Under the pieces are notes generated by a model, which did not search any database, was not told the DNA's origin, and worked only from the letters and a program-made list of their open reading frames with translations. Positions 20,560 through 51,484 of a stretch of DNA of 54,236 nucleotides are shown in pieces (position 1 is the stretch's first letter; the number at the start of each line of letters is the position of its first letter). The stretch comes from Chromera velia (lineage: Eukaryota). Location of the stretch: positions 1 to 54,236 of the forward strand of contig JAHBMJ010000195.1 of NCBI GenBank assembly GCA_018398765.1. The letters run 5' to 3'. A program made the translations under genes and the position numbers.

Positions 20560-20590
<31 letters not shown>

Positions 20591-22691: not shown

Positions 22692-22739
<48 letters not shown>

Positions 22740-22753
22740 CAGAGACAGAGACA

Positions 22754-22792
<39 letters not shown>

Positions 22793-24047: not shown

Positions 24048-24483
24048 CTTCGGCAGGGAGGGCGCGGGTCCGGGCGGCCGTCGCGTCCTCGGAAGCTCCG
24101 ACCGGGACTTGATGCGATCGCATACGCGCCTGCAGCAGCCAGTGTAAATGTGTGTCAAGCCGTGCGTATTTGCTTCGATCTGTGTCGGCTTTGAGAGAAA
24201 GAAATTGTTTCCCTTCCCGCACATCACATGAGGGCCCTCCCTTTCTCAATTCGTCACAGCAGCTGTCGAAGAAGTGAAGAGGCCGCAGAAGGATGGAGTT
24301 TTGTCTTCAAAAGAGAAAGAAGACTTGTACGTCTGTGAAGGATACATAACTATGGCACTTGAGAAAAGACCGCGAAAGGCCGAGCTTCCACAGCCATACA
24401 GCCAGTCTCCCCATTTAGACGAGACGAGACCTGCAGCAAACCTACTCACCTGAAAACTTCACAGGCGTCCTCTATAGCTGGTC

Positions 24484-26770: not shown

Positions 26771-26808
<38 letters not shown>

Positions 26809-27560: not shown

Positions 27561-27659
<99 letters not shown>

Positions 27660-28930
27660 TCCTTTGTGTTTTCTTTGGCGGATGCGGGATCCGTACTTTG
27701 TGAGGAATCACACAGACAGGCAGACAGACAGATAGACAGACAGACAGACAGACAGATAGACAGACAGATAGACAGACTATATGTTTGTTCTTCTTCTCCC
27801 TCTTTCTCTTCATGAACACCACAGACAAAAAGAAAGAAAGAACAAAGACAAAGGAACAGCACCAACAATCAAACAGCGTGGGCAGACAGACAGACAGACT
27901 ATATGTTTCTTCTTCTTCTCCCTCTTTTTCTTCGTGAACACAACAGACAAAAAGAAAGAAAGAAAGAAAGAACAAAGACAAAAGAACAGCACCAACAATC
28001 AAACAACGTGGGCAGGGGGCCCGAAAGGTGAGAGTTAAGCGCCCCTTGCCTCTCCACCTCCCGACAGACTTTCACGTGATCACTGGTTTCACACGCTACT
28101 CCTCTGCTGCTTCCACTCAAGACAAGGAAGAGAAAAAAAGGGAAGACAAGAAAACTCAACAAGTAAAAAAAGAAAAAAGAAAAAAAGAAGGAAAACTGCA
28201 CGTGGGGACCGGCACCGTCAGACAGACAGACAGAATGCCTAACTAACTGACCTTGTCCAGACGTGTGAGGAAGTTCTCAGAGACAGAATTCAAAAATTCC
28301 TCCAGACAGGGCACCTTGTCCACATCGGGTTGAGTCGGGTCGATCCCCTTGTCGCACACGAACGTGGACACCTTCCGCAGCTGTACGTTCTTCCGGGGGC
28401 AGCACGCGCACTTCCCGTCGGGTATTATTTCGGGAAGAGAGGGAGAGGGAACGGGGGGGGGGNGGTTGTACTGAGGGGGGGGGGCTCCAAGAAGGCACTA
28501 CTTGGGCGGAGGGGTGGGTCAGAAGAGGGGGCGGTGGAATTGCCCCCCGCGATGCCGAAGACCCCGGGGGCGGTTGTTGCGCCTGCAGGGGCATTCCTCC
28601 TAAGTAGGGCCCTGGCATGCTTTCACTGAATTGGGCCCCGGGGGGGGCCTGGGGCTGCTGCTGCTGCTGATACCAAGACGAGGATGTCCTGGAATCGAAG
28701 TGTAAAAGCCCGGGGGGGGGACCCTCAGGAGGGGCAGGGGAACGGCCAGCGAGACCGGAGACGGAGGCTGAAGATGGAAGCCCCATTGCCCCCGCACCTC
28801 TGTGGTAGGTCCCTGGCTGATTAGTGTGTGTGAGCCCCCCTCCTTGGCTGTACGTGGGTGCCCCCGATGAATCGTATGGAGACCTCCTAGGGCCCCCCTG
28901 TGCGTTCTTCTGCTGGGTCTCGTCTGACAT
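24484..28930 (-). CDS. Multi-exon hypothetical Pro/Gln/Ser-rich protein with a coiled-coil segment
   Basis: ATG 28930, with an apparent frameshift at the N/G-run near 28463 (likely assembly error). Exons about 28930-28252, 27319-27150, 26770-25048 and 24616-24484 (ends NFCQ-TGA). Confidence 0.65.
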
Positions 28931-29759
28931 TGGGGCAAGAAAGAGGAGAGGCTATCAAGGGAGAGACCGTCCCTTCTGCTCTCTTCTCTTCTCCGGTGGA
29001 GGCCCCCTCTCCTCTCCTCTCCTGGCTATGCGACAATCAGCCTGCATGGAGTAAGCACCCACAGGACAAAATGGAAATGGAAGCTGAGGCCTTTTCTTCA
29101 TGAACGGAAGTGAACGTGTAAACAGGGGGGAAGGAGGTGAGAGTGATTTTTGTTGGAGAAAGGAAGAGAGTGAGAACGGAAGAGATGAATGAGTTTCCAG
29201 AAGAAGCACCTGCTGACCTCCGCTGTTTGAAGAGTGCCCACGACCGTCAACCTGCTGTCGTTTCTTCCAAAAGGCCCCAGCCCAACAAAAGCAACGCAAG
29301 AGAGAAGCGAACCCGGCAACTGAAATAGCTATCTGTACATTTTCGGCGCCAGGGAAGAAGACCAATATAGAACGCAGAAACGGTCCCCGGAACGAACTTC
29401 GACTTACAGTCACTCTCTCTCCAGCTTGAATGGATCCAACACCACCCTATTCCTTCTTTGAGCACAAAGGAAGCACAGACATGCACAAGAAACAAAATAC
29501 AAAATGGTGAGCTCAGTCTGAGCTGGCTCTGGAACTCTTAAAGCTTTCTTGCAAGCTTGGGACGGAAAATCGGGACAGAGCAGACAAATGCCTCTCAAGC
29601 ATGTGCGCGAGAGGGGACGTATGATTTCTGCTGGGACGGAGAATTGTGGAGGAGACAGTCAGACACCGATAGTTTTCGGGAAGTGAAAGAGCTCTTACAT
29701 GCTCTTACAGCTTGAGCAATGAGCAGTCTCCAAAAAGTGTGTGTGACAGCCCCGCGACA

Positions 29760-29968: not shown

Positions 29969-32433
29969 ATGCAGTCTCTTCTTCTACTCCCGGCTTTTGC
30001 TGTTTGCCTTCTTTTAGGTTGGCCGTCTCCGTCTCTTGCCTCTCGGGGCTCTGAGACGGCGGGTGGGGGGCCTCTCGAAAGATTTCCTCCCAAGGTCCAG
30101 TTCTTTTGGACGGACATCGACCATTTCAATTTCGTCTCCAAGGTCAGAGACAGCTTCTGGTGCCTCACCTGTCCATGAGCTCATTTTCTTTCCTCTTTCC
30201 TTTCTCCAGTCGCTGCCGTCTCCGCCTTCACATCAAGATTTCCTTTCTGCCTGTCTTGTCATCTTTTCCTCCTGAGCCCCTCTCTGCAATTTGCTACACC
30301 CTCCTCTGCTCACCCTTTTCTGACCCTTCGGAGGAGAAAACAGCTTTCTGTTTTCTCTTTCCGAGGTGCCTCTACGAGTTCATTCGGAGTGAAAAATAAG
30401 TCTCCGTCTCCGTGCACTACCTGGTGTCTCGTCGTGCATCTTCACTGTAGCTCTGCTCTGAATTCCTTCTTTTTCTCCACGTTGTCATCTACTCTCCCAC
30501 ACCCCTCCCTCCCTTTCCCTGTTTCTTTTCTTTCCTTCCGCCTCTTTCTCTCTCTCTCCCCTCCATCTCCCCCTTTGACCCGCCCTTGCTTCCCTCAACC
30601 CCTCCCTCCCACCCTCTGTGTGTGTGTGTACGTGAGTGTGAGTACAAGTGTCTACACCGATGCTGGCTGTGTGCATAATGATGGCACATCCCCGTCTCGT
30701 CTCTTTGGCCTACACTGAAATGAACTGTCAGCAGAGTCCCGCCCAGAAGTTTGCCGTGAAAGTGCTGACGTACGATGGCTTCTACAACCGTCTCCCCGAG
30801 TCCCCCCTCTTGGTCTATTTGGGCAACGAGGGGGTGATCGAGAGTTTCTACAACAATACCGGGGCAATGTTCGAGATAGCAGAGGAAATGGGGGCGCTGG
30901 TTGTCTTCATCGAACATAGGTGGGTCTTGGTCTCTTCCCCGTTCCTCCTTTGTCTGTCTCTGGTTCTTTTTTCTGTCGTTTCCCCCTCCCTCCCTCCTCT
31001 TTGATGTCCTGCCGTACGCTCTATTCTGCTGTGAAACATCTCCACAACTCTATTCTTTTTTTTCTGAGAGAGCTGCGGTCTTCTTGAAAGACGACTCGAG
31101 TGAGTAAATTGGGACTTGAAGTCTGGAAATCGTTCTTTTTTTCCCCTCTTATTTTCTTGCTTCGCTTTTCTTCTTCCCCTTTTTTGCTGCGAATGTCTAA
31201 AAATGTTCCCGAAGCAACACACCCTTGGGAGCCCATGTATGCGTGTCTCTAAATGTGTTTGTGGATGTTTTTCATACGCATGAGATCTATATATCGATAT
31301 GATAATAAATGAATTGCAAGTCTGCATGCAGGTATTACGGTAACGGCACCTCCCTTCCTTGGGGGGGGAATTCTTTCACCGAAGAGCACTTGGCCTTCCT
31401 CACTGTCGAACAGGCAATGGGGGATTTTGCGGAGGTGCTCTCTCAGATGCGCACAGATCTGGAATGCACGGGGGCCAAGGCATGTCCCACTATTCTGTTT
31501 GGAGGCTCTTACGGTGCCATGCTTGTCGTGTGGTTTCGGCAGAAATACCCACACCTCTCTGTGGGGGGTGTTGCTGCATCTGCCCCTGTGAACACTTTTG
31601 CTGATGATTTGGATCTTGGGGCTCTGTTTTGGAATGCTTCCCTGTCTGTGTTCGGGTCTGAGGGTAAGATTGTGGGGTGGCCTCAGTGTGAGCAGACTGT
31701 GAAGAAGGGAATGGATGAGATACAGAAAAAGTCGTTGCGGCAGCTTTCAGGCACATTCCCTGTCTGCAAGAAGATGGAGACCGAGACGGACAGACTGCGT
31801 CTGGAGGCGTATGTGCGGGGTGCGCTGTCGACTCTGGCGATGAGTGACTACTCAGTTCAGGCAGACCTGATGCAGCCCCTGCCTCCCTTTCCTGTCAGAG
31901 AGGCCTGCAAAAGGATGCGGCAGCATGTGCGCAAAGGGAAAGGTTCGTCTCCCCTCCTGAAGGATCTGGTTGGAGCAGTGAACCTGATGGTGAACAGCAC
32001 GGAGAAGCTGGAGTGCTGGGATTTGGGAAGAGAGTTGATTGAAGAAGAAGGAGGGAGAGAAAGAGGGAATGCAGGAGAGGACTTCTCTGGGAATTTCCCG
32101 CCGTCTCTCTCTATGGGGGGCAATTCTCTTGGAGACATCTGGAAGGTCTGGTCTTTTCAGGTAATTGGGAGGGGGGGGTCTTTTCAGGTAACTAAGCGTC
32201 TGTGGTGGGGGCGGGGAGGGATGCATTAGTTTTGTCGAGCAGACAGACTTGCATGAATGCATGCGGACTTCGAGTGTACGCTCTTTTTTTTGTTCAGCAG
32301 AGAGTGTTAACAAGAAGAAGAAAGCTGCATTGGTTGTTATCCGAAAGAAAGAAAGATGCGGTCTTCTATTGATTCTCGACATTTCGATCAGGGCAACGGG
32401 TCAGATACACACACTGGCATCAATAGACAGAAA

Positions 32434-32471
<38 letters not shown>

Positions 32472-32496
32472 CACGGATACACTGTATGCTGCTTGA

Positions 32497-32538
<42 letters not shown>

Positions 32539-32583
32539 TGTGTGTCTGTCTGTCTGTCTGTCTGTGTCTGTCTGTCTATGTGT

Positions 32584-32615
<32 letters not shown>

Positions 32616-33115
32616 AGGTCTGCACAGAGCTCCCCATGCAGCCTCTGACTTCTGAGGATTTCGGCTTCCTCATTCCCTTCTCTGAGGACCATTCCCGCGC
32701 CCTGAAGGCCGCATGTGCCCGTCTGTTCCCCCACACCAAGTGGAGGCCGTTGTGGATGCGCACAGCCACGGGAGGCGACTCTCTGGGTTCCGTGTCGAAT
32801 CTCATCTTCAGCGATGGAGCCAAGGACCCCTGGGGGGCGGGGGGTCCGAACAGGGCGTGCTACGAGAGAATCGTTCAGGGAAAGTCCACAGAAGGCTGCG
32901 AGGAGATGAAGCCCCAAACGGGGTCTCCTCAGAGCTTTGCACTCCACCCCTCAGCTGTGCGTTTGTTCATCAGAGACGGCGCGCACCACGCAGACCTGCG
33001 CGCATCCGACCCGAATGACAGTGAGGAACTCCGGAGAGCGCGAAGGAAGGAGAGGGAGGTGATGAGGAAGTGGATTGACGAGGCATTGGGGAAAGAGGTT
33101 TTGAATGTCGCATGA
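29969..33115 (+). CDS. Serine peptidase family S28 (lysosomal Pro-X carboxypeptidase / DPP-II like), 4 exons: 29969-30142, 30732(or 30735)-30919, 31332-32160, 32618-33115
   Basis: Signal peptide. Motifs [36 protein letters not shown] (catalytic Ser), WFRQKYP, ASAPV, FQVCTE, DPW (Asp) and GAHHADL (His). Splice phases are consistent. Confidence 0.95.
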
Positions 33116-33604
33116 GGGGATCGATCGAGGCCGGGAGGATTGTCACTAAGTCGGTCGATCGAGCCTGATAATTTTAGCCTTCGATGATGCAGGTTACAGG
33201 TTGCAGGCTATCAATGGGTCCGCCTGTTCTTCTTTCATTTAATTAGACTTTTTGTCGTGCTTCTCGTATCACTGCCAAGACCTGATCATCCACCTTCTAA
33301 ATGATTTATTTACAATATGCTAATCTGATTCACTAAAGAAAAAAATGTAGAAGAAACACCTTTTTAAATCCAGTTTTTAATTGTATAAACTAAGTTAAAC
33401 TCTAGCTTAAACCTTAGAAAGAAGACTTACTAAATAGACTTATCATAAATAAATTTTCATTGAAAAAGTTTTTAAATTATTGTTAATTGCTAGATTTATA
33501 ATATTGGTTGCATTGTCTGTAGGATATCATAGTACATTCAATAATTTGTCTAGTATAGTGTATACATTAGCATAGTATACATGCTAGTATACATGCATGG
33601 TTTA

Positions 33605-34660
33605 CACTGAAACTATAGTGTGACACAATTCAAATTATGACACAATACCCTATACACTAGTACTAGTGACACAATGTTAAGTGCTAGTGATACAAATAAT
33701 TGTGTCACAATAGGTGTTACAATAGTTAGTGTGACGTAAGTATAGATTGTGTATAAGACTGCGTGGTGTGAGCGCAAACGAGCACCTTGCATGATCCTTG
33801 CATGCTTTCTGGGACCACATCAAAAAAGAGCGTGCGTCTCAGCCAGAGCAACTGGAATTAGATGTCGCATCTGAATTGTAGCAAAGTCAGTCTGACAGTG
33901 CAGGTACTAACTGATTGAACGATGGAACGATGACGTATGTCTAGATTGACAGACCTTCCGTCCTGATGTTATGAATATGATGAGCCCTGTGTATGTGTTA
34001 CAGTTAGAGTAAGTTAGGTATGATGAAATTGTCAGACAAAAATTGAAGTGATCCTAAACTTTTAAAGTTGACTAGCTTGAAATCTTTAGAGTCGTTGAAG
34101 TTTAGACTCACCTCATTCACTCGATCACTCACCTCACTCACTCATTCACTCATATCCCTTACTCACTCCACCCACTCATCTACTCACCCCACCCATTTAC
34201 CCACTCACCTCACTCACTCACTCACTCGCTCACTCACTCAACACTGGAGAAGAGCAAGGAAGGGGTGCGCAGCGGTTCATAGAGCGGTTCAGGCACAAAC
34301 TGCTGCTCGGGAGTGTTGCTATCCTAAGGGAGATGCTAGTAGTCTACAATGAGGTGGGACATGGCTTGACAGTTTCGGCTTGTATGGCTAAGGTTGCACT
34401 GCATAGTTTGTACGAGTTTGCCTACGAGTTTGCGCACCGCTGTACGTTTTTTTCGTGGGGTCATGCATGCACGCTTTGTTCATACATGCATGCAGTCCAC
34501 GCAGCCCGCAGCGGCTATGACGCTGCCCCATGACGCGTATCAAGCCGTGATCTATAACTATTTTTTCATACATAAGTGTGATTTAATTAAATCTATCAAA
34601 AGTTCTTAAAATTACAGTTATTATTTCACAATCTCCTTGTGACACACTATAGTTCTAGTG
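33605..34660. mobile_element. Non-autonomous CACT-ended TIR element (CACTA/CMC-like), copy 1
   Basis: TA-CACTGAAACTATAGTGTGACACAA ... TTGTGACACACTATAGTTCTAGTG-TA, with GTGACACAA subterminal repeats. Confidence 0.7.
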
Positions 34661-36758
34661 TAGCATACCATGGTGGAGTAGGCGGGAATATACTATGTAA
34701 TGCCCAAGAATGCCTACCGAGAGTACTGTTTCATTTTAGGCTTTTCTCATACAATTAGACAAGAAAGAAACTCTACCAGCTAAGTTGAAATGCACTTCAA
34801 ATTTTTAACCTGGGCGCATCCAAGCCTGAATTAATTTATAATCATGATTGATCATGATGTTCCCTCCAAGAACCATTTGTTATATATATAGTCCGATCGC
34901 GAAATGACGCTAAACGGCCGCAGCGATTTCGGACCCCTAAACCAAACAGCCAGATTCTAACTCTAAACAAATGAGACATACAAACAGATGTAAGCGGCTT
35001 ACATAAGAGGCACAGGTATAAACAACACCCCAAAAAGAGGATAGATAAAAACACACTCCAAAAAATTGTATGATTTCATTGGAAAAAAAGCGTGATTGAA
35101 AGGATCGATTGATTTCCATGGCCTCGGGATTCGCCCGATTTCCCTTAAACCGCTCGAACTCAAGTACACTGTCTTTCATTACAAATCCCCCCCCCGGTAT
35201 CATAAACAACATAGTACAATCAATGCATAATTTCAGGCTCGTTTAAGTTTCCGTAAAAGTGATGATTTTTTTTTTTAATATAAAGATCTATCCGTCTTAT
35301 AGAATTCAACAAGACAAACATACAAAAAGCAAAAAAAAATTGGGATGGATCTAGGGATGGCTTTGCAAAGACCAGATCGGCAGGTTCCATCAGAAGGAAA
35401 AAGGGACTCTTCACAGATCTACAACAGCCACAAACAACACAATAACACCATCTCTTTGGCGACTAAGCGGCACACTCATATGCGCAGTCATCAAGCTCAT
35501 ACAGCTGCAGGCAGCTACCGTCAGCCTACATACCCCCTAGCATATACCCCACACAGCACTCACCCGTGCTGGCCTGTCAGGGCAAGCATAGCGGGTTCAA
35601 TCAGAACTTATTCAGAAGGAAGAAGGGACTCTTAACACCTCTCCAACAACCACAAACGACACAATAACAACCTCTCTCTGGCGACCAACCAGCATACTCA
35701 TATACTTAGTCATCAAGCTTGTACAGCTACAGACAGCTGCCGCCAGCGTATATACATCCCACAGAGCACTCACCCATGCTGGCCTGTCAGGGCAAAGATG
35801 GCGGGTTCAATCATAAAAAAGAAGGGACTCTTAACCTAGCTCTTAACACCTCTCCAGCAACCACAAATGACACAATGATAACCTCTCTCTGGCAACCAAC
35901 CGGTATACTTATATACCTAGTTATCAAACTTGTACAGCCGTAGACAGCTGGCAGTGCCGCCAGCGTACACACACACCACACAGCACTTACCCGTGCTAGC
36001 CTGTCAGGGCAAGGATGGCGGGTTCAATCATATTAAGAAAGAAGGGACTCTTGACACCTCTCTAGCAACCACAAATGACACAATGACAACCTCTCTCTGG
36101 CGACCAACCGGCATACTCACATACCTAGTCAATGACATCAAACTTGTACAGCCGCAGACAGCTGTCACCAGCGTATACACACCCCACACAGCACTTACCC
36201 ATGCTGGCCTGTCAGGGCAAGGATGACGGGTTCAATCATAAGAAAGAAGGGACTCTTAACCTAGCTCTTAACACCTTTCTAGCAACCACAAATGACACAA
36301 TGACAACCTCTCTGTGGCGACCAACCAGCATACTCATATACTCAGTCATCAAGCTTGTACAGCCGCAGACAGCTGCCGCCAGCGTATACACAACCTACAC
36401 AGCACTCACCCGTGCTAGCCTGTCAGGGCAAGCATAGCGGGTTCAATCATAAGAAAGAAGGGACTCTTGACACCTCTCCAGCAACCATAAATGACACAAT
36501 GACAACCTCTTTGTGCTGACGAACCGGTATACTCATATACCTAGTCATCAAACTTGTACAGCCGCAGACAGCTGCCGCCAGTGTACATACACCCCACACA
36601 GCACTTACCCATGCTGGCCTGTCAGGGCAAGGATGGCGGGTTCAATCATAAGAAAGAAGGGACTCTTGACACCTCTCTAGCAACCACAAATAACACAATG
36701 ACAACCTCTCTTTGATAAGTAACCGGCATACTCACATACCCAGTCATCAAACTTATAC

Positions 36759-37959
36759 CAGGGTTGCTTTTCTAGTCGGTAACAGGTCTAGTCTACCGGC
36801 AATTGCCGGTAACTGGTAATCGCCTCAGTCTGCCTTCCTTTTTCCGACAAAAAAAATGATAAAAATTAGGGTCCCAAAAAAAAAATTTCACCTGCGGCGC
36901 CAACCTTCAAAAACATATTTTTAAGTGTTTATTGGCATTTGAAAAGCCTATTCACACACAAAAAAAAATTAAAAAAATATTTAAAAAATATAAATTTTTA
37001 ACTGCTTCACGGTAGCCTTCACTCCTATAAGTAGCAAAAAGTTCCAACAGCTCTAGAGTTTCTCTGAAGTGCTCTGGCCCACTTTTTTTTTAGTCCAGCC
37101 TATCATACTACAAGAGAAAGAGAGAGAAAGAGAGAGAGAATAAAAGAGAGTCGCTCTCCCTACCACAGGACCAAACAGTTTCCGTTCATGCTATTGCTTT
37201 CCTTATCTCTGTTTGCTTATATGTACAGGCCCAAATTGCCACCCAATCGACTTAATTATAATTAATATACACAAAGGTCCACTCGCCTTTCGCTCCTGTA
37301 CTCGCTCTCCCTGTCTCTGTCTGCTCATACATAAACCCAATTGCCTTTCATTCACATACTTGCCCTCCCTGTCTCTACAAACACCCAACCGCCTTTCGTT
37401 CCCTGTCTCTGTTCGCTTATTTACTTATAATTCTTTCATGTCTGCTTGCTTGCAGATGGCAAATCTTCACCCCCCTGGGTCTCCGGAGTCAGAGGCCCTT
37501 CGAGGCCTCAGATATCAGCTTTTAGCGGCGGGTCTTTCTTTGGAGGCTGGAGCACTAGATTGGGAGGACCACCCAAACTTTGAGGCGGACTCAGAGTCTT
37601 TCCGTTGTTGGAATCGCGCGGATGCATCTGTCTGGGCCAGCTGTGGTCATTGCGGCCAGCGGTTTTCTGTTTTTGGGCGCCAAGTGCAAGACGGGACCCA
37701 TTGCTTCGACCTGCGGCATCTTCAAGCACATTGGCCGCATAGCTGTCCCTACAGATGACGCATTGACTTTTTGAATTAACCTTAAGTCTAGCCTTAAGTG
37801 ATTGATTGATTGACCTATAACCTAGGACTTAGATTATTGAAAAGTGTTAGTGACTATTAGAATTCTGCCAAGTCTTTGCCAACTGCCAGCAAACTCTGCC
37901 GGTAATTACCAGTTACCGGTAATGAAGCTTGTCTACCGCCGAAAAAATCGGCAACCCTG
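36759..37959 (+). mobile_element. Non-autonomous hAT-type DNA transposon, copy 1
   Basis: TIR CAGGGTTGC/GCAACCCTG. 8-bp TSD ACTTATAC/ACTTGTAC. Subterminal TACCGG/CCGGTAA repeats. Confidence 0.92.
37456..37758 (+). CDS. 100-aa BED-like zinc finger ORF inside the hAT element
   Basis: ATG directly after a TGCAG acceptor. WEDHPNF..ASCGHCGQRF..GTHCFDLRHLQAHWPHSC. Confidence 0.55.
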   Translation: MANLHPPGSPESEALRGLRYQLLAAGLSLEAGALDWEDHPNFEADSESFRCWNRADASVWASCGHCGQRFSVFGRQVQDGTHCFDLRHLQAHWPHSCPYR

Positions 37960-39159
37960 ACTTGTACAGCCGCAGACAGTTGCCACCAACATACACACAC
38001 CCCACACAGCACTCACCCATGCTGGCCTGTCAGGGTAAGGATGGCGGATTCAATCATAAGAACAAAGGGACTCTTAACACCTCTTGAGCAACCACAAATG
38101 ACACAATGATAACCTCTCTATGGCGACCAAGCGACATACTCACATACCTAGTTATCAAACTTGTACAGCCGCAGACAGCTGTCGCCAGCGTACACACACC
38201 CCACACAGCACTTACCCGTGCTAGCCTATCAGGGCAAGGATAACGGGTTCAATCATAAGAAAGAAGGGACTCTTAACCTAGCTCTTAACACCTTTCTAGC
38301 AACCACAAACGACACAATGACAACCTCTCTGTGGCGACCAACCGGCATACTCACATACTTAGTCATCAAGCTTGTACAGCCGCAGACAGCTGCCGCCAGC
38401 GTATACATTCCCTACACAGCACTCACCCGTGCTGGCCTATCAGGGCAAGGATAGCGGGTTCAATCATAAGAAAGAAGGGACTCTTGACACCTCTCCAGCA
38501 ACCACAAACGACACAATGATAACCTCTCTGTGGCGACCAACCGGCATACTCACATACCCAGTCAATGACATCAAACTTGTACAGCCGCAGACAGCTGCCG
38601 CCAGCGTACACACATCCCACACAGCACTTACCCGTGCTGGCCTATCAGGGTAAGGATGGCGGGTTCAATCATAAGAAAGAAGGGACTCTTAACACCTCTC
38701 CAGCAACCACAAATAACACAATGACAACCTCTCTTTGGTGAGTAACCGACATACTCACATACCTAGTCATCAAACTTGTACAGCCGTAGACAGCTGCCAC
38801 CAGCGTGCACACACCCCACACAGCACTCACCAGTGCTAATGCCGTACGCTCTATTCTGCTGTGAAACATCTCTACAACTCTATTCTTTTTTCTGAGAGAG
38901 CTGCGGTCTTCTTGAAAGACGATTCGAGTGAGTAAATTGGGACTTGAAGTCTGGAAATCGTTCTTTTTTTCCTCTCTTATTTTCTTGCTTCGCTTTTCTT
39001 CTTCCCCTTTTTTGCTGCGAATGTCTAAAAATGTTCCCGAAGCAACACACCCTTGGGAGCCCATGTATGCGTGTCTCTAAATGTGTTTGTGGATGTTTTT
39101 CATATGCATGAGATCTATATATCGATATGATAATAAATGAATTGCAAGTCTGCATGCAG

Positions 39160-40338
39160 GTATTACGGTAACGGCACCTCCCTTCCTTGGGGGGGGAATT
39201 CTTTCACCGAAGAGCACTTGGCCTTCCTCACTGTCGAACAGGCAATGGGAGATTTTGCGGAGGTGCTCTCTCAGATGCGCACAGATCTGGAATGCACGGG
39301 GGCCAAGGCATGTCCCACTATTCTGTTTGGAGGCTCTTACGGTGCCATGCTTGTCGTGTGGTTTCGGCAGAAATACCCACACCTCTCTGTGGGGGGTGTT
39401 GCTGCATCTGCCCCTGTGAACACTTTTGCTGATGATTTGGATCTTGGTGCTCTGTTTTGGAATGCTTCCCTGTCTGTGTTTGGGTCTGAGGGTAAGATTA
39501 TGGGGTGGCCTCAGTGTGAGCAGACTGTGAAGAAGGGAATGGATGAGATACAGAAAAAGTCGTTGCGGCAGCTTTCAGGCATATTCCCTGTCTGCAAGAA
39601 GATGGAGACCGAGACGGACAGACTGCGTCTGGAGGCGTATGTGCGGGGTGCGCTGTCGACTCTAGCGATGAGTGACTACTCAGTTCAGGCAGACCTGATG
39701 CAGCCCCTGCCTCCCTTTCCTATCAGAGAGGCCTGCAAAAAGATGCGGCAGCATGTGCACAAAGGGAAAGGTTCGTCTCCCCTCCTGAAGGATCTGGTTG
39801 GAGCAGTGAACCTGATGGTGAACAGCACGGAGAAGCTGGAGTGCTGGGATTTGGGAAGAGAGTTGATTGAAGAAGAAGGAGGGAGAGAAAGAGGGAATGC
39901 AAGAGAGGACTTCTCTGGGAATTTCCCACCGTCTCTCTCTATGGGGGGCAATTCTCTTGGAGACATCTAGAAGGTCTGGTCTTTTCAGGTAATTGGGAGG
40001 GGGGGGTCTTTTCAGGTAACTAAGCGTCTGTGGTGGGGGCGGGGAGGGATGCATTAGTTTTGTCGAGCAGACAGACTTGCATGAATGCATGCGGACTTCG
40101 AGTGTACGCTCTTTTTTTTGTTCAGCAGAGAGTGTTAACAAGAAGAAGAAAGCTGCATTGGTTATTATCTAAAAGAAAGAAAGATGCGGTCTTCTATTGA
40201 TTCTCAACATTTCAATCAGGGCAACGGGTCAGATACACACACTGGCATCAATAGACAGAAAAGCACACACACACACATACACACACACACACACACATAG
40301 ACAGACAGACAGACAGACACAGACAGACAGACAGACAG

Positions 40339-40381
<43 letters not shown>

Positions 40382-40464
40382 AAGCAGCATACAGTGTATC
40401 CGTAGCACACACACATACATACACACACACACACAGAGTCACGGATACACTGTATGCTGCTTGA

Positions 40465-40501
<37 letters not shown>

Positions 40502-41087
40502 CTGTCTGTCTGTCTGTCTGTGTCTGTCTGTCTGTCTGTCTATGTGTGTGTGTGTGTGTGTGTGTATGTGTGTGTTCTCTTCTTTGCAGGTCTGCACAGA
40601 GCTCCCCATGCAGCCTCTGACTTCTGAGGGTTTCAGCTTCCTCATTTCCTTCTCTGAGGACCATTCCCGCGCCCTGAAGGCCGCATGTGCCCGTCTGTTC
40701 CCCCACATCAAGTGGAGGCCGTTGTGGATGCACACAGCCACGGGAGGCGACTCTCTGGGTTCCGTGTCGAATCTCATCTTCAGCGATAGAGCCAAAGACC
40801 CCTGGGAGGCGGGGGGTCCGAACAGGGCGTGCTACGAGAGAATCGTTCAGGGAAAGTCCACAGAAGGCTGCGAGGAGATGAAGCCCCAAACGGGGTCTCC
40901 TCAGAGCTTTGCACTCCACCCCTCAGCTGTGCGTTTGTTCATCAGAGACGGCGCGCACCACGCAGACCTACGCGCATCCGACCCGAATGACAGTGAGGAA
41001 CTCCGGAGAGTGCGAAGGAAGGAGAGGGAGGTGATGAGGAAGTGGATTGACGAGGCATTGGGGAAAGAGGTTTTGAATGTCGCATGA
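39160..41087 (+). pseudogene. 5'-truncated S28 peptidase pseudogene (exons 3-4 only)
   Basis: No promoter or exons 1-2. TGG>TAG stop at 39968-39970. G>R and G>E changes flank the DPW motif. Confidence 0.93.
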
Positions 41088-41576
41088 GGGGATCGATCGA
41101 GGCCGGGAGGATTGTCACTAAGTTGGTCGATTGAGCCTGATAATTTTAGCCTTCGATAATGCAGGTTACAGGTTGTAGGCTATCAATGGGTCCGCCTGTT
41201 CTTCTTTCATTTAATTAGACTTTTTGTCGTGCTTCTTGTATCACTGCCAAGACCTGATCATCCACCTTCTAAATAATTTATTTACAATATGCTAATCTGA
41301 TTCACTAAAAAAAAAAATGTAGAAGAAACACTTTTTTAAATCCAGTTTTTAATTGTATAAACTAAGTTAAACTCTAGCTTAAACCTTAGAAAGAAGACTT
41401 ACTAAATAGACTTATCATAAATAAATTTTCATTGAAAAAGTTTTTAAATTATTGTTAATTGCTAGATTTATAATATTGGTTGCATTGTCTGTAGGATATC
41501 ATAGTACATTCAATAATTTGTCTAGTATAGTGCATACATTAGTATAGTATACATGCTAGTATACATGCATGGTTTA

Positions 41577-42664
41577 CACTGAAACTATAGTGTGACACAA
41601 TTCAAATTATGACACAATACCCTATACACTAGTACTAGTGATACAATGTTAAGTGCTAGTGACACAAATAATTGTGTCACAATAGGTATTACAATAGTTA
41701 GTGTGACGTAAGTATAGATTGTGTATAAGACTGCGCGGTGTGAGCGCAAACGAGCACCTTGCATGATCCTTGCATGCTTTCTGGGACCACATCAAAAAAG
41801 AGCGTGCGTCTCAGCCAGAGCAACTGGAATTAGATGTCGCATCTGAATTGTAGCAAAGTCAGTCTGACAGTGCAGGTACTAACTGATTGAACGATGGAAC
41901 GATGACGTATGTCTAGATTGACAGACCTTCCGTCCTAATGTTGTGAATATGATGAGCCCTATGTATGTGTCACAGTTAGAGTAAGTTAGGTATGATGAAA
42001 TTGTCAGACAAAAATTGAAGTGATCCTAAACTTTTAAAGTGACTAGCTTGAAATCTTTAGAGTCGTTGAAGTTTAGACTCACCTCATTCACTCGATCACT
42101 CACCTCACTCACTCATTCACTCACATCCCTTACTCACTCCACCCACTTATCTACTCACCCCACCCACTTACCCACTCACCTCACTCACTCACTCACTCAC
42201 TCGCTCACTCACTCAACACTGGAGAAGAGCAAGGAAGGGGTGCGCAGCGGTTCATAGAGCGGTTCAGGCACAAACTGCTGCTCGGGTGTGTTGCTATCCT
42301 AAGGGAGATGCTAGTAATCTACAATGAGGTAGGACATGGCTTGACGGTTTCGGCTTGTATGGCTAAGGTTGCGCTGCATAGTTTGTACGAGTTTGCCTAG
42401 GAGTTTGCGCACCGCTGTACGTTTTTTTCGTGGGGTCATGCATGCACGCTTTGTTCATACATGCATGCAGTCCACGCAGCCCGCAATAGCTATGACGCTG
42501 CCCCGTGACGCGTATCAAGCCGTGATCTATAACTATTTTTTCATACATAAGTGTGATTTAATTAAATCTATCAAAAGTTCTTAAAATCACAGTTATTATT
42601 TCATAAATCATTGTGACACAAAAGATTCTAAAAATTCTCCTTGTGACATACTATAGTTCTAGTA
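41577..42664. mobile_element. CACT-ended TIR element, copy 2
   Basis: Duplicate of 33605-34660; terminal G mutated to A. Confidence 0.7.
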
Positions 42665-45160
42665 TAGCATACCAAGGTGGAGTAGGCGGGAATGTACTAT
42701 GTAATGCCCAAGAATGCCTACCGAGAGTACTGTTTCATTTTAGGCTTTTCTCATATAATTAGACAAGAAAGAAACTCTACTAGCTAAGTTGAAATGCACT
42801 TCAAATTTTTAACTTGGGCACATCCAAGCCTGAATTAATTTATAATCATGATTGATCATGATGTTCCCTCCAAAAACCGTTTGTTATATATATAGTCCGA
42901 TCGCGAAATGACGCTAAACGGCCGCATCGATTCCGGACCCCTAAACCAAACAGCTAGATTCTAACTCTAGACAAATGAGACATACAAACAGATGTAAGCG
43001 GCTTACATAAGAGGCACAGGTATAAACAGCACCCCAAAAAGAGGATAGATAAAAACATACTCCAAAAAATTGTATGATTTCATTGAAAAAAAAGCGTGAT
43101 TGAAAGGATCGATTGATTTCTATGGCCTCGGGATTCGCCCGATTTCCCTTAAACCGCTCGAACTCAAGTACACTGTCTTTTATTACAAATCCCCCCCCCG
43201 GTATCATAAACAACATAGTACAATCAATGCATAATTTCAGGCTCGTTTAGGTTTCCGTAAAAGTGATGAATTTTTTTTTTAATATAAAGATCTATCCGTC
43301 TTATGAAATTCAACAAGACAGACATACAAAAAACAAAAAAGAATTGGGATGGATCTAGGGATGGCTTTGCAAAGACCAGATCGGCAGGTTCCATCAGAAG
43401 GAAAAAGGGACTCTTCACAGATCTACAACAGCCATAAACAACACAATAACACCATCTCTTTGGCGACTAAGCAGCACACTCATATGTGCAGTCATCAAAC
43501 TCATACAGCTGCAGGCAGCTACCGCCAGCCTACATACCCCCTAGCATATACCCCACACAGCACTCACCCGTGCTGGCCTATCAGGGCAAAGATGGCGGGT
43601 TCAATCAGAACTTATTTAGAAGGAAGAAGGGACTCTTGATACCTCTCCAACAACCACAAACGACACAATAACAACCTCTCTCTGGCAACCAACCAGCATA
43701 CTCATATACTTAGTCATCAAGCTTGTACAACTACAGACAGCTGCCACCAGCGTATATACATCCCACAGAGCACTCACCCGTGCTGGCCTGTCAGGGCAAG
43801 GATGGCGGGTTCAATCATAAAAAAGAAGGGACTCTTAACCTAGCTCTTAACACCTCTCCAGCAACCACAAATGACACAATGACAACCTCTCTCTGGCGAC
43901 CAACCGGCATACTTATATACCTAGTCATCAAACTTGTACAGCCGCAGACAGCTGCCGCCAGCGTACACACACCACACACAGCAGTTACCCGTGCTGGCCT
44001 ATTAGGGCAAGGATGGCGGGTTCAATCATAATAAGAAAGAAGGGACTCTTGACACCTCTCCAGCAACCATAAATGACACAATGACAACCTCTCTCTGGCG
44101 ACCAACCGGCATACTTATATACCTAGTCATCAAACTTGTACAGCCGCAGACAGCTGCCGCCAGCGTACACACACCACACACAGCAGTTACCCGTGCTGGC
44201 CTATTAGGGCAAGGATGGCGGGTTCAATCATAATAAGAAAGAAGGGACTCTTGACACCTCTCCAGCAACCATAAATGACACAATGACAACCTCTCTCTGG
44301 CGACCAACCGGCATACTCACATACCCAGTCAATGACATCAAACTTGTACAGCCGCAGACAGCTGTCGCCAGCGTACACACACCCCACACAGCACTTACCC
44401 ATGCTGGCCTATCAGGGCAAGGACGGCGGGTTCAATCATATTAAGAAAGAAGGGACTCTTGACACCTCTCTAGCAACCACAAACGACACAATAACAACCT
44501 CTCTGTGGCGACCAAGCGATATACTCACATACCTAGTCATCAAACTTGTACAGCCGCAGACAGCTGCCGCCAGCGTACACACACCCCATACAGCACTTAC
44601 CCGTGCTGGCCTATCAGGGCAAGGATGACAGGTTCAATCAGAAGGAAGAAGGGACTCTTAACCTAGCTCTTAACACCTTTCTAGCAACCACAAATGACAC
44701 AATGACAACCTCTCTCTAGCGACCAACCGGCATACTTATATACTCAGTCATCGAGCTTGTACAGCCGCAGACAGCTGCCACCAGCGTATACACAACCTAC
44801 ACAGCACTCACCCGTACTGGCCTGTCAGGGCAAGCATAGCGGGTTCAATCATAAGAAAGAAGGGACTCTTGACACCTCTCTAGCAACCATAAATGACACA
44901 ATGACAACCTCTTTGTGCTGACGAACCGGTATACTCATATACCTAGTCATCAAACTTGTACAGCCGCAGACAGCTGCCGCCAGTGTACATACACCCCACA
45001 CAGCACTTACCCGTGCTGGCCTGTCAGGGCAAGGATGGCGGGTTCAATCATAAGAAAGAAGGGACTCTTGATACCTCTCTAGCAACCACAAATAACACAA
45101 TGACAACCTCTCTTTGGTGAGTAACCGGCATACTCACATACCCAGTCATCAAACTTATAC

Positions 45161-45511
45161 CAGGGTTGCTTTTTTAGTCGGTAACAGGTCTAGTCTACCG
45201 GCAATTGCCGGTAACCGGTAATCGCCTCAGTCTGCCTTCCTTTTTCCGACAAAAAAAATGATAAAAATTAGGGTTCCCAAAAAAAAAATCCACCTGCGGC
45301 GCCAACCTTCAAAAACATATTTTTAAGTGTTTATTGGCATTTGAAAAGCCTATTCACACACAAAAAAAAATTAAAAAAATATTTAAAAAATATAAATTTT
45401 TAACTGCTTCACGGTAGCCTTCACTCCTATAAGTAGCAAAAAGTTCCAACAGCTCTAGAGTTTCTCTGAAGTGCTCTGGCCCACTTTTTTTTTAGTCCAG
45501 CCTATCATACT

Positions 45512-45568
<57 letters not shown>

Positions 45569-46387
45569 TAAAAGAGAGTCGCTCTCCCTGCTACAGGACC
45601 AAACAGCTTCCGTTCATGCTATTGCTTTCCTTGTCTCTGTTTGCTTATATGTACAGGCCCAAATTGCCACCCAATCGACTTAATTATAATTAATATACAC
45701 AAAGGTCCACTCGCCTTTCGCTCCTGTACTCGCTCTCCCTGTCTCTGTCTGCTCATACATAAACCCAATTGCCTTTCATTCACATACTTACCCTCCCTGT
45801 CTCTACAAACGCCCAACTGCCTTTCGTTCCCTGTCTCTGTTCGCTTATTTACTTATGATTCTTTCATGTCTGCTTGCTTGCAGATGGCAAATCTTCACCC
45901 TCCTGGGTCTCCGGAGTTAGAGGCCCTTCAAGGCCTCAGACATCAGCTTTTAGCGGCGGGTCTTTCTTTGGAGGCTGGAGCACTGGATTGGGAGGACCAC
46001 CCAAACTTTAAGGCGGACTCAAAGTCTTTCCGTTGTTGGAATCGCACGGATGCATCTGTCTGGGCCAGCTGTGGTCATTGCGGCCAGCGGTTTTCTGTTT
46101 TTGGGCGCCAAGTGCAAGACGGGACCCATTGCTTCGACCTACGGCATCTTCAAGCACATTGGCCACATAGCTGTCCCTACAGATGACGCATTGACTTTTT
46201 GAATTAACCTTAAGTCTAGCCTTAAGTGATTGATTGATTGACCTATAACCTAGGACTTAGATTATTGAAAAGTGTTAGTGACTATTAGAATTCTGCCAAG
46301 TCTTTGCCAACTGCCAGCAAACTCTGCCGGTAATTACCAGTTACCAGTAATGAAGCTTGTCTACCGCCGAAAAAATCGGCAACCCTG
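45161..46387 (+). mobile_element. Non-autonomous hAT-type element, copy 2
   Basis: Same TIR and TSD (45153-45160, 46388-46395). Confidence 0.92.
45884..46186 (+). CDS. BED-like zinc finger ORF, copy 2
   Basis: Duplicate of 37456-37758, still open. Confidence 0.5.
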   Translation: MANLHPPGSPELEALQGLRHQLLAAGLSLEAGALDWEDHPNFKADSKSFRCWNRTDASVWASCGHCGQRFSVFGRQVQDGTHCFDLRHLQAHWPHSCPYR

Positions 46388-49300
46388 ACTTGTACAGCCG
46401 CAGACAGCTGCCACCAACGTACACACACCCCACACAGCACTCACCCATGCTGGCCTGTCAGGGCAAGGATGGCGGGTTCAATCATAAGAACGAAGGGACT
46501 CTTAACACCTCTTGAGCAACCACAAATGACACAATGATAACCTCTCTGTGGCGACCAAGCGACATACTCACATACCTAGTTATCAAATTTGTACAGCCGC
46601 AGACAGCTGCCGCCAGCGTACACACACCCCACACAGCACTCACCCGTGCTAGCCTATCAGGGCAAGGATGACGGGTTCAATCATAAGAAAGAAGGGACTC
46701 TTAACCTAGCTTTTAACACCTCTCCAGCAACCACAAATGACACAATGACAACCTCTCTGTGGCGACCAACCGGCATACTCACATACTCAGTCATCAAGCT
46801 TGTACAGCCGCAGACAGCTGCCGCCAGCGTATACATTCCCCACACAGCACTCACCCGTGCTGGCCTATCAGGGCAAGGATAGCGGGTTCAATCAGAAGGA
46901 AGAACGGACTCTTGACACCTCTCCAGCAACCACAAACGACACAATGACAACCTCTCTGTGGCAACCAAGCGACATACTCACATACCTAGTCATCAAACTT
47001 GTACAGCCGCAGACAGCTACCGCCAGCGTACACACACACCACACAGCACTTACCCGTGCTGGCCTATCAGGGCAAGGATGGCGGGTTCAATCATAAGAAA
47101 GAAGGGACTCTTGACACCTCTCCAGCAACCACAAACGACACAATGACAACCTCTCTGTGGCGACCAAGTGACATACTCACATACCTAGTCATCAAACTTG
47201 TACAGCCGTAGACAGCTGCCGCCAGCGTGCACACACCCCACACAGCACTCACTAGTGCTAATGCCGTACTAGGAAAAGGTTTAACTAAGTCTACCGAGGT
47301 ATTATCTAGTAAATTTTTTTCTAGCGCATCTAGTAGGCTTGCTGAAGCCGTGATCACTTGCGTGTTAGCGGCTACAAACGGCACAAGGTGAAAAGGGATA
47401 ACAAGACTGCTGGTATTGAGGGCAGTGGTGGCCTAGGAAGTCGGCGATAAGCGCTCGGATAGGAGCGGGGAAGATCGTTTCGATTTTTGTTGCTTTCATT
47501 TTTTTATTTCTAGAAAACGTTGCGATGGCCATTAGAGCCCGCAGATCGATCAATCGTTTGCCGCTTGGTTTGATGCAATGCAGGCCGGTTCGGGAGTCTC
47601 ACATACGGTTCTGCTTGGTTTTGGCATGTAAGGAGCCAAGCAGAATGACGGTGTTGCAGTCATGGGAGGTTCTTCAACATCATTGACAACACCGGGTCCT
47701 TGTTCTGAAAGGCCATCAGCGTTCGGAGGGCCGCTCCCAAGTGTTGCCCTCGCTGTGGCGCCTCCCGAAGACGCTGTGTGCTGGCTCGGAGGCACACCGC
47801 CCTGCGTTTGTGGAGCTGTAGGGTCAGCTGGAGAAGCAACCGTATGTCCGGGAGAAGAAACTCCGGATGGGGACGATCGCTGCGCGAGCGGACTGCGTTG
47901 TGATTGTCCAGATGGTCTGGAGCTCGGGGTCTGTGCCATAGCCTGGAGACCTGCCACTACTTCCTCAAGGGCCCTTGTGACCGCGTCGAGCCGTCTCGCA
48001 TCAACAGAACCTGCCGTGTATGAACAGAGAAAAACACGCAACGACAAAAAAAGATCCAGGTCATCGCACAGACAGACCAAAAAAATACCACGTATGCAGG
48101 GCACAGGCAAGCCAGCCACCGTTCACACGCGACGTCAAAAAGTATGCTGGAGAAATTTTCAGCGCGGGCGACGAAAAAAGTGATCCTGACGGGAGCCGGG
48201 CGGACCCGCAGACAGTCAAGGTTCGAGACGGTGCAACCTCTACGGACGAACGACCAGCCCAGTCGTCTCACAGCAGGCGAACTCACGCATGCTGGAGTAA
48301 TTTTTGGTCGCAGAAGCCAGCCTGGAGAAATTTTCGTTCGCACGACGAGAAAAAACCGGGGACAGACACTCAAAGCTCAACAGACCACGCAAACCCGCAG
48401 CAGACGTCTGACACAGGCACACACGCACTTCTCTCACGGCACGCATGCTCAGGCTGCCTGATCGTATACACCCACCCCCGAACAGCCGGACAACAGTCAC
48501 ACACAACATTCGGACGTCAATTTAAAGAGATGGAGGTGCCGAGTATATGATGGAGAATTTTTTGTTCGAGCGACGAAAAAAAGAAACGGGGGGGGGAAGC
48601 CCGCAGACACGGCGCTCAGGCGTCTCACACAGCCAGCCACTCACACACAGAGCACTCGCGCACTTCCATCTGGCGACGTCGAACGCATGCTGGAGATTCC
48701 GGGGAAAGCCCGCAGACACTCAAATGTCGACAGACCAAGACCAAGCCTCTTGACGCAGGCACACACGCTCTCACGCACGCATGCTCAGGCTGTCTGAGCG
48801 TTCCATCCATCACGACACACCCAACCAACAGCCGCACACAGCCCGCGCATGTCAACTTAAAGAGATGGAGACACCGAATGTATGATAGAGAATTTTTTGT
48901 TCAGGCGAGGTCGCGACGGAAAAAGAAAAGGACCGGGAAGGGGAAGCCAGGTCAAGCCAGACGAGTCACACGCGACTCAGGAGAAAAGCAGAGAGCCGAG
49001 GTCTCTGACGGTGACGGATGGCACACGAAAAGAGCGCACACAGCCGAGGCACGAAGGCCTTCCTGACGGTCTAGGTCGTCAGCCAAGCAGACACACAGGA
49101 AAACAAGTGGGTACAGACAGAGAAACGGGGTATATGCAGGCGAAAGGGCGACCAACCTTGCGGAGCCGGGCGCGGAAAAAGACCCTCTACAAACTCTCTT
49201 CTCCTCTGGTCGTCTGCAAGCCCAGTGAATCCTGTGAAGCTGCTGTCTAGCTTTTCGTTCAGAGGCCCGAGCGCAAAAGCCAGATCCTGATTCGCCATCA

Positions 49301-50842
49301 CGAAAGCGCGGCAGGCGTCCTTGTCCGGTGACGGCTTCCCGTTGTACGCGTGGGCACGTCGATTCCTCACCTTGCTTGACAAGGCCCAGTCTGCACCGCG
49401 CACATACACACACGGTCAGCACCCACAGGACGAAAGCAGAAAGCAGGGGAAAAAAAAGACGAAGCAACACAGAGCACGAACGAGCGAGCCCAAGGAAGCC
49501 AAGCCAGAAAATCAAAAAACCAACGCAAGGGCATCAAGTGAGTAGACAGACAGCCTGGACACAGAAAAAAAAAGAAGCAGTACAGACGCACCTGCAGGAC
49601 GAATCTGACTGCCCTTGGAAGGGCCCCGCTCGTCCGCCAGCACACTGGAGGTCTGGAGAGCCTGCATACAGACACACACGATGGCGAAGATCTTGCTTAG
49701 AACGACACTACGCAGTCAACGGATCCTGAGACCACCAGGGGCAGGCATGCTCTACTCACCGCTTGAAGAAGCTCTTGGGCTGCACCCAGGCTCGACCCGG
49801 CCACCTTCTTCCCCACGGGGCTTCTATCAATACGCCCGCGGGGACCTGCAAAGAGCCAAGACAAAACGGTTCGGAGCAGGAACGCGAGAAGAGACGGCCA
49901 GCACACAAGAGGAAGCGGCATGGGTACGCAAGCTCACGAAACTGGAAGGCGGACGGACGGACGGACGGACAGAACGACAGGAAGAGAGGGCCAAAGGAGG
50001 GGGAAAAGCAGAGAGGGAGACAAAAAGCCAAGGCCGAAGGAGGGCGGGACGGCTGGCATGCAGACCCACCTGCAGGACTCGCGTGGCCATCCAAACGAGC
50101 GCCAGCAATGGCTAGAGGCTGCACGCAGGGTACCAGGGGGGGCAAAAGGATAGAGACACGCAAGGGGGGGGCGGAGACACGCGAATAAAGATGGGACAGA
50201 AAAACGGTCCTGGCACGCCTGGCTCACCTCTTGTCGTGGGGTTGCGAACAGGCAGGGGCAGACGTCGTCCTTTGGCCCCATGTTTTGCAGGGCAAAGGTC
50301 TCCTCAGGACGCTCCCAGGGATCTGCATCAAGGACACAAAACAAAGTCGAACGCGCTGAGAAGAAAGCAAAGGGCCATAGAGAGAAGAAACACGCGTTCC
50401 CGCAAAGGAAAAGGTGCGAGAAGCGGGCATCGCTAGAGGCAGCTAAAAAAAGGGCGGGAAAAGAGCAGACAGGACACAAGAAGAGAAAGAGCGGAAAGGA
50501 CCAGACAGAACAGAAGAGAGCTCAGGGTCACAGAGAACGGAAGAAGGAGGGACATGAGCAGTCCGGGATCGCAACAGGAGGAGAGGGGAAGCAGGGGGCG
50601 GACAGCAGGGAGAGGAGAAGGAGAAGTGGGGAGAAGGAGGAGGTGGGGGAGAAGGGGGGCGGCAGGAGGCCCGGAAGAGAGGAGGAAGGGTTCCTACCGC
50701 AAGACCGTTGGAGAAGGCAGACGGAAAAGCAAAAAGAAATAAGAAAGAAACTCGAAGGCTCGAGCCTGATGAAGAGGCCAGACAGACATGCAAGAGAGAG
50801 AGGTGACACTTCCAACCGCGGGTGACAGTCTTCGAACCGAAG

Positions 50843-51029
50843 TGTCACCCACCCAAGAAGGTGAAAGCACCTCACCGTGACACTTGTGACACTAGTGACA
50901 CCTTTTTAGAAAAAGTATGTAGAGAAAAAAAAGAGGGGGCTGCATAGAAAAGAAAAGCTTTGGAAAACGGTGTCGCAACTGTCACCACTGTCACCTATCC
51001 CCTGCTTTCACCTTCAAATGGTGGTGACA
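50843..51029. mobile_element. Degenerate intronic inverted repeat/MITE with GTGACA subrepeats
   Basis: TGTCACC..GAAGGTGAAAGCA..(GTGACA)x3 mirrored by (TGTCAC)..TGCTTTCACCTTC..GGTGACA. No TSD seen. Confidence 0.55.
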
Positions 51030-51484
51030 GCCGGATGACGCTTCTTTTTCGGACGGTGACACCCCGAAAGAAAAGGAACTGCAGCGTCAACTCGAACCGA
51101 TGAAAAGGAGAACTGAGAGAACTGCCTGGCCAGGCAGAAAACCAAAAAGCGACAAAAACATCCATCGGGGACGTACCTGCAGAAGGAGACGCGTCCCGGT
51201 CGACTTCCCGTGGGGCGATGGGAGTCTCGAGAGGCTGCACGCAGACGGGGAAAGACGTCAGTCCACCAACGGAGGAAACGCGTCGACAGGCCGGACACGC
51301 GTAACCCACCACTTCTCGTTGGGCTGCAGACAGGTGTTCCAGGTTGCGCAGGTTAAAGGTCCTCCCGAGATCCCTCCAGGCACCTGCAGGAAAGGGAGGG
51401 GAAGAACTGATTTGGCCTTTGGAGAAAGACCCAGCTCGAGGGACACAAGAAGAAGTGGGGAAGGCAGTGATCAGCTACGGAGGT

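Follow-up and report, generated by a model that had tools for sequence, protein, structure and literature searches.

Asymmetric C>T and G>A change between an active peptidase gene and its promoterless tandem duplicate in Chromera velia

Here we analyzed C>T and G>A changes in a stretch of 54,236 nucleotides of Chromera velia (contig JAHBMJ010000195.1, assembly GCA_018398765.1), called the window below, which holds the S28 serine carboxypeptidase gene Cvel_15713 and a tandem duplicate of its 3′ part. Over the transcribed stretch shared by both copies (31010-33345), the promoterless copy 2 carries 36 C>T/G>A changes in 1,106 C/G sites and the transcribed copy 1 carries 1 in 1,106, while past 33345 there are 71 changes in copy 2 and 78 in copy 1 over 2,504 C/G sites. 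State and not sequence sets the rate, as the same DNA mutates when it is promoterless and not when it is transcribed. The same bias appears genome-wide in the gypsy retrotransposon copies of Chromera. We lean toward the explanation that silent Chromera DNA gains C>T changes by slow chromatin-directed cytosine modification and deamination, in the manner of the Dim2 mutator of the fungus Zymoseptoria tritici; classical repeat-induced point mutation (RIP) is not established in Chromera. The features of the gene and its duplicate are as follows.

29969-33115, + strand: intact S28 serine carboxypeptidase gene Cvel_15713, the active spared copy (Pfam PF05577, spliced translation)
29969-30142, 30735-30919, 31332-32160 and 32618-33115, + strand: exons of Cvel_15713 (spliced translation equal to P0121)
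31010-33345, + strand: transcribed part of duplicate copy 1 (the X3 transcript contig ends at 33345)
33346-38839, no strand assigned: downstream part of copy 1 (copy-versus-copy alignment)
38840-38847, + strand: 8-base microhomology at the junction, same as 31010-31017 and 47262-47269
38840-41317, + strand: promoterless copy 2 of the gene, starting within intron 2 (alignment, codon analysis)
41318-47269, no strand assigned: downstream part of copy 2 (copy-versus-copy alignment)

Asymmetry between the copies

The duplicated exons differ by 22 substitutions in 1,327 bases (global alignment and codon analysis), and 20 of these are C>T or G>A with the A/T letter in copy 2, namely 6 synonymous changes, 13 missense changes and 1 stop (TGG>TAG at 32141/39969); the other two are 1 G>T and 1 substitution with A in copy 1. 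The contexts are CpA 7, CpG 6, CpC 4 and CpT 3. An earlier reading of the window, the original prediction, had named about 22 exon substitutions, about 20 of them in this direction, the stop and the same mixed contexts, and these figures were reproduced exactly; its further claim that both copies carry transitions of their own downstream of the gene is borne out by the counts past 33345. The intron-3 microsatellite (32436-32617; 182 aligned sites, 19 differences) was excluded from all counts.

The contrast between the inside and the outside of the transcript has a Fisher p of 3e-9, and in the neutral classes alone (synonymous, intron and 3′ untranslated region) there are 22 changes in copy 2 against 0 in copy 1 (p=5e-7). 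Expressed as rates of C/G-site change in the transcribed stretch, copy 1 stands at 0.09% (confidence interval 0-0.5%) and copy 2 at 3.3% (2.3-4.5%), the latter being the same density as in the adjoining repeats (2.8-3.1% of C/G sites, p=0.52). The sole change in the transcribed part of copy 1 is a G>A at 32658 and the next one lies at 33561, so the spared zone of copy 1 stops near the transcript end, within about 220 bases. In copy 2, 14 of 467 non-synonymous and 6 of 282 synonymous sites are changed, with no sign of selection, and such similar rates would fit a dead copy.

The original prediction also held that selection alone would not explain the synonymous asymmetry, and this stands only in part. 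Selection could produce it if the changes came in linked bursts, because an active copy that had been hit would then be purged whole; the lack of clustering reported below makes this combination less likely, though still conceivable.

The runs X3 and X7 carry no RNA label on record and were handled as RNA on the ground that GT-AG introns (introns 1 and 2 of Cvel_15713) are missing from their contigs. X3 apparently derives from another isolate. It agrees with copy 1 at each of the 12 exon-3 differences and at 13 or more of 16 further C>T/G>A sites, and it serves as an outgroup only if the isolate split predates the duplication. Distant homologues agree with the copy-1 state at conserved Trp, Val and Gly positions, and the stop and the conserved-site changes fall in copy 2. 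The second isolate and the distant homologues together confirm the predicted direction, that is, C>T/G>A decay in copy 2. At 32658 X3 shares the letter of copy 2, and this site is read as a G>A in copy 1 because copy 2, X3 and the distant homologues keep the other letter. The change turns a homologue-conserved Gly of the active copy into Asp, and X3 retains the Gly. Spliced contigs of X7 cover 24 diagnostic sites and agree with copy 1 at every one; low expression of copy 2 is still compatible with this because contigs drop rare variants. A single-copy gene compared between isolates in one transcript gave 11 X3 differences, 7 of them specified (5 transitions and 2 transversions), which are too few to compare.

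The duplication is real and not a split haplotype. Window self-comparison and global alignment show a head-to-tail repeat in which 31010-38839 is found again as 38840-47269, covering the 3′ part of Cvel_15713 and leaving copy 2 without the promoter and the first two exons. The same 8 bases are found at its start, junction and end, which would fit a microhomology-mediated tandem event. Contigs of two DNA runs break at 31010, where contig depth, a rough measure, roughly doubles (X1 from 13.2 to 25.2; X2 from 20.5 and 33.4 to 42.5-49.7), and the letters of copy 2 are present in both X1 and X2. The original prediction had named a mis-assembled haplotype as one of the findings that would overturn it, and the depth doubling in two runs and the microhomology at three ends speak otherwise. 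It is extremely improbable that copy 2 is such an artefact, or that the direction is reversed with copy 1 gaining G/C. For an artefact it may be said that the junction was not seen in reads, that the assembly may have been built from one of the DNA runs, that the intron-3 microsatellite looks poorly assembled and that X3 is invalid as an outgroup if the duplication is older than the isolate split; the similar non-synonymous and synonymous rates of a dead copy speak against it. The haplotype artefact was rejected on the depth doubling, the end microhomology, and the stop and conserved-site changes (Val, Gly, Trp) of copy 2.

Two features are present in copy 2 and missing from copy 1, namely an inverted repetition, 140 bases long, of the intron-3 microsatellite and a tract of pyrimidines ahead of exon 4, and the microsatellite regions 32436-32617 and 40264-40590 are probably locally mis-assembled in one or both copies. 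Public protein sets represent the dead copy 2 (39137-41087) by two separate gene models, the fragments P0123 and P0122.

The host had been described in the original prediction as apparently non-fungal. The four window exons, when spliced, translate exactly to the Cvel_15713 protein (P0121, 561 amino acids) with all introns GT-AG, and the S28 protein cluster contains Cvel_15713 of strain CCMP2878, which places the window in Chromera velia, an alveolate and non-fungal alga. The three best protein matches of the window retrotransposon are also in Chromera.

Sequence context and other repeats

Over both copies 186 transitions were counted, with per-site rates of 50/521 (9.6%) at CpG, 86/1188 (7.2%) at CpA, 31/1060 (2.9%) at CpT and 19/841 (2.3%) at CpC. 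The 3′ base affects the rate (p=3e-12) and the 5′ base does not (p=0.93); both strands are affected (84 C>T, 102 G>A), and CHG (5.7%) and CHH (4.0%) sites differ little. As 136 of the 186 transitions lie outside CpG, methylation decay restricted to CpG was rejected. DNMT3A ranks its contexts as CpG, CpA, CpT and CpC, and the 3′-base preference seen here resembles that of C5-methyltransferases. In six tests neither strand runs (p 0.11-0.61) nor close pairs (p 0.74-1.0) were in excess, a signal which many light rounds of mutation would blur.

An AID/APOBEC-like deaminase or UV damage would account for the dominance of C>T. APOBECs prefer a particular 5′ base, and dipyrimidine sites mutate less here (117/2703, 4.3%) than other sites (69/907, 7.6%). 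The missing 5′ effect, the lower dipyrimidine rate and the lack of strand-coordinated clusters argue against UV and the known APOBEC-type enzymes; their signatures were rejected and such an origin is very improbable, although APOBEC-like genes are described from some protists in the available part of a preprint (bioRxiv 10.64898/2026.01.13.699255).

The RIP indices, which the original prediction had proposed as a check, were negative. The thresholds given in the accessible text of PMC7882544 are a TpA/ApT above 1.15 and a substrate index of at most 0.75, and 0 of 11 sequence classes passed both (satellite 1.12/1.20; gypsy interior 0.62/1.31; gypsy long terminal repeats (LTRs) 1.32/0.93). Intergenic DNA has an observed/expected (o/e) ratio of 0.74-0.88 for CpG, and its TpA o/e is 0.74-0.79 in all intergenic classes against 0.44 in introns; no 500-base window falls under 27% GC. 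The gene regions 15684-29446 and 29969-33115 have a CpG o/e of 0.63-0.67 and a TpA o/e of 0.26-0.44, despite being spared recent C>T change.

Three kinds of repeats in the window were analyzed along with the gene.

33603-34631, no strand assigned: high-copy repeat zone, probably LTR-derived, with its counterpart at 41575-42606 (summed contig depth)
35379-36758, also 37960-38847, 43383-45160 and 46388-47269, no strand assigned: tandem array (satellite) with a unit of about 199 bp (array detection, unit alignment)
4678-10428, − strand: decayed Ty3/gypsy element, an independent test outside the duplication (Pfam reverse transcriptase and integrase zinc-binding domains)

The repeat zone at 33603-34631 has a summed X1 contig depth of 260-1,390 against 13 in the flank, and it carries 11 and 10 changes in the two copies; the neighbouring 34632-35378, apparently low-copy apart from the duplication, carries 14 and 9. 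A loose end behind 34003 resembles what we take to be a primer-binding site. Relatives of the 33603-34631 element occur in the RNA-type contigs of X3 and X7, and some members of the family may be transcribed. Among 20 satellite units, which share history and are not independent, the column changes are 56 C>T, 9 T>C and 18 transversions, with 37 of 53 CpA/CpG columns changed against 19 of 53 others (p=9e-4).

The gypsy element is bounded by LTRs at 4678-4997 and 10109-10428 with a perfect 5-base target duplication, and 15 of the 16 differences between its LTRs are transitions. The LTRs start and finish with CG at all four termini, whereas the usual termini are TG...CA. When the element was compared with three other Chromera copies, 23 of its 24 private amino-acid changes were of C>T/G>A type and none was T>C, with 21 of the 23 at CpA/CpG. 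In the other three copies the C>T-type private changes are 6 of 13, 24 of 55 and 1 of 4, and these counts retain 4 of the 13 changes of P0131, which lie at an alignment edge, and 30 of the 31 non-C>T changes of P0132, which lie within one poorly aligned stretch. Eleven more Chromera gypsy gene models gave 163 C>T/G>A changes among 206 private changes against 12 in reverse, and CpA-class sites changed more than CpC-class sites (21/347 against 15/867, p=2e-4); six non-Chromera gypsy families, used as controls, gave 103 such changes among 359 against 67 in reverse. This comparison of gypsy families is at protein level from gene models, with seven two-member pairs left out. A metagenome scan with a repeat motif gave 0 matches, and one with P0001 gave 8 distant loci, none from Chromera, which were not used.

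Possible mechanisms

The explanation that we favour as somewhat probable begins with the microhomology-flanked tandem duplication, seen in the window, which creates a copy without promoter or first exons. This promoterless copy would take on silent chromatin, in which an enzyme of C5-methyltransferase type would mark the cytosines or deaminate them directly, and the changes would accumulate gradually and not in RIP-like bursts, while transcription would hold the enzyme off the active copy. The original prediction had proposed a repeat- or silencing-directed C>T mutagenesis which spares gene bodies; the directional change, the mixed contexts, the spread in repeats genome-wide and the sparing of the transcribed copy agree with it, but duplication itself as the trigger is not shown.

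The nearest known process is that of Zymoseptoria tritici, where Dim2 drives mitotic C>T change in methylated transposons, with over 98% of C>T at CpA and CpG spared (available part of PMC8016269), and the effect of Dim2 is given as 15-fold in the part of PMC8497519 at hand. That process is gradual rather than meiotic and inactivates transposons, and the Chromera pattern may be likened to it: C>T change in silent repeats, genes spared, CpA favoured and a more than tenfold excess. It is unlike it in the share of contexts (86 of 186 at CpA, 50 at CpG, CpG highest per site) and in its host, an alveolate with a DIM-2 count of 0 in the survey table cited below.

Several points weigh against the chromatin-directed explanation. 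Within the gypsy LTR pair, CpA is not in excess of CpT (CpG 7/22, CpA 3/36, CpT 5/51, CpC 0/26), and in one of the three close gypsy copies a single C>T is found among 4 private changes. The six control gypsy families may consist of active elements on which selection acts. No strong bias is seen in four small duplicate pairs that are older or intragenic (transitions/transversions 7/9, 27/16, 5/2 and 4/2), and gene bodies are more CpG-poor than intergenic DNA, which the explanation leaves unaccounted for. The published gene counts also stand against it: Supplementary Table 1 of PMC12344493 counts 0 for DNMT1/3/4/5/6/DIM2 and 4 for DNMT2 in Chromera, the text of that survey available to us describes species having only DNMT2 with undetectable 5-methylcytosine (5mC), and the activity of DNMT2 on DNA is called weak and disputed in the accessible part of PMC5699548.

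The same table lists no DNMT class for Vitrella, and a supplement gives Chromera five genes with the PF00145 methylase domain and no MBD gene (PMC5890265). The table is also all zero for Phaeodactylum, yet DNMT3, 5 and 6 are reported there in the available text of PMC9998398, and such gaps make a missed or recently lost Chromera enzyme possible. The enzyme might speculatively be among the 4-5 Chromera PF00145 proteins, of which four are classed as DNMT2, be missing from the gene models, or have been lost recently. A further idea, which we regard as possible but doubtful, is that Chromera independently evolved a RIP- or Dim2-like defence against silenced or duplicated DNA, whose cytosines would be mutated by a non-canonical enzyme, most plausibly one of the four DNMT2-class proteins retooled from tRNA to DNA. 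If this is true, Chromera, which belongs to the sister group of the apicomplexan parasites, would have the first repeat-directed C>T mutator outside fungi. Transposons occupy about 30 Mb in Chromera and 1.5 Mb in Vitrella according to the accessible part of PMC4501334.

It is also possible that the process is a true analogue of RIP, in which the cell senses homology between copies and mutates their cytosines, the active copy being spared through a block by active chromatin or through purging of burst-hit lineages. RIP mutates both duplication partners, active genes included. The Chromera pattern is like ascomycete RIP in its directional C>T/G>A change of duplicated DNA and transposons, with both copies hit downstream of the gene, and CpA is among the preferred contexts. 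All the DNA seen to be hit is repeated, including the low-copy-looking 34632-35378, and C>T exceeds T>C by 56:9 among the satellite units and by 23:0 in the gypsy element. A bias on all silent DNA would moreover, in the long term, be expected to bring GC below about 15%, yet all 500-base windows stay at 27% or more. The rate is about 36-fold above the spared sequence, against the 40-fold known for Neurospora duplicates (RIP; available parts of PMC7882544, PMC7296669 and PMC9246332). Against such an analogue, the same-strand clusters of RIP were not found, while single-stranded clusters make up 91.9% of those left by RIP in Neurospora according to the accessible text of PMC7296669; the load is low (3% of C/G), the RIP indices are negative against the thresholds of PMC7882544, and the RID/DNMT4 count for Chromera is 0 in the table of PMC12344493. 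One partner of the duplication is also spared (1 against 36), which purging of hit alleles could mask. We consider a homology-sensing process rather unlikely, and hold only that the Chromera pattern likely works like fungal repeat-directed C>T mutagenesis, without being shown to be RIP.

The other alternative involves no defence system. Spontaneous deamination of cytosines would stay unrepaired in all untranscribed chromatin, and in transcribed genes it would be efficiently repaired or else reversed by GC-biased conversion. The mutation boundary tracks the transcript end, every intergenic class has a higher TpA o/e than introns, and the gene part also has a lower frequency of transversions (1 in 2,152 aligned sites) than the rest (22 in 5,487, with 15 of the 22 in satellites). 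Effects of plant gene bodies on mutation are roughly two-fold, and the contrast of 0.09% against 3.3% exceeds this; what has to be explained is a difference of about fivefold or more that affects both strands, and transcription-coupled repair alone would not be expected to spare both strands of copy 1. The threefold preference of CpA over CpC/CpT would also be unexpected from plain hydrolysis, and the implied equilibrium lies far below the GC content of intergenic DNA. We regard this explanation, too, as rather unlikely, although it needs no methyltransferase and fits the published gene counts (table of PMC12344493).

The chromatin-directed explanation must also be set beside other known systems. 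In plants and vertebrates, methylated transposons decay passively and silent repeats lose cytosines faster than genes. Chromera is like them in the faster decay of silent repeats and in CpG as the top context, and unlike them in that 136 of 186 changes lie outside CpG, CpA is nearly as fast as CpG and CHG is about equal to CHH; DNMT1, DNMT3, CMT and DRM are also not among the Chromera enzymes listed in the sources cited above, and there is no MBD gene. In Bigelowiella natans, a TpA hypermutation of integrated viral DNA (AT>GC, over 1000-fold) has been proposed as a genome defence, according to the available part of bioRxiv 10.64898/2026.01.13.699255. Both algae are non-fungal and both show hypermutation of silent DNA on a local scale, but the Bigelowiella targets are single-copy viral insertions changing AT>GC, and those of Chromera are repeats and a host-gene duplicate changing GC>AT at CpG/CpA.

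RIP is called fungus-specific in the accessible text of PMC7882544, and a 2022 review, in the part available, describes it as the one case known in which the mutagenic effect of methylcytosine is put to use, and allows that it may have evolved outside fungi (PMC9246332). The open-access literature, to which our search was directed and not to subscription journals, yielded no account, for chromerids, of mutation resembling RIP or of DNA methylation. Chromera, a free-living relative of the malaria parasites, is a testable case, being culturable and having a genome-wide C>T footprint and an internal control of the same sequence and the same age (36 against 1). Its methyltransferase set should, on current reading, give no 5mC. 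Detection of the mark would either overturn the idea that genomes with DNMT2 only lack methylation or bring to light an enzyme absent from the annotation; its absence would suggest that mutation rate differs with transcription to an unusually large degree. Both outcomes are relevant to what becomes of gene duplicates and to transposon control and loss toward the apicomplexan genomes.

Remaining observations in the window

The GC-rich end of the window (47300-54236) has a 52-base array and many short frames, with no Pfam match in the five frames scanned. At 11194-11988 there is a single open frame of 264 amino acids, Lys-rich and with a Cys-rich end, which gave no Pfam match; as an impression only, it resembles a linker-histone-like region together with a zinc finger.

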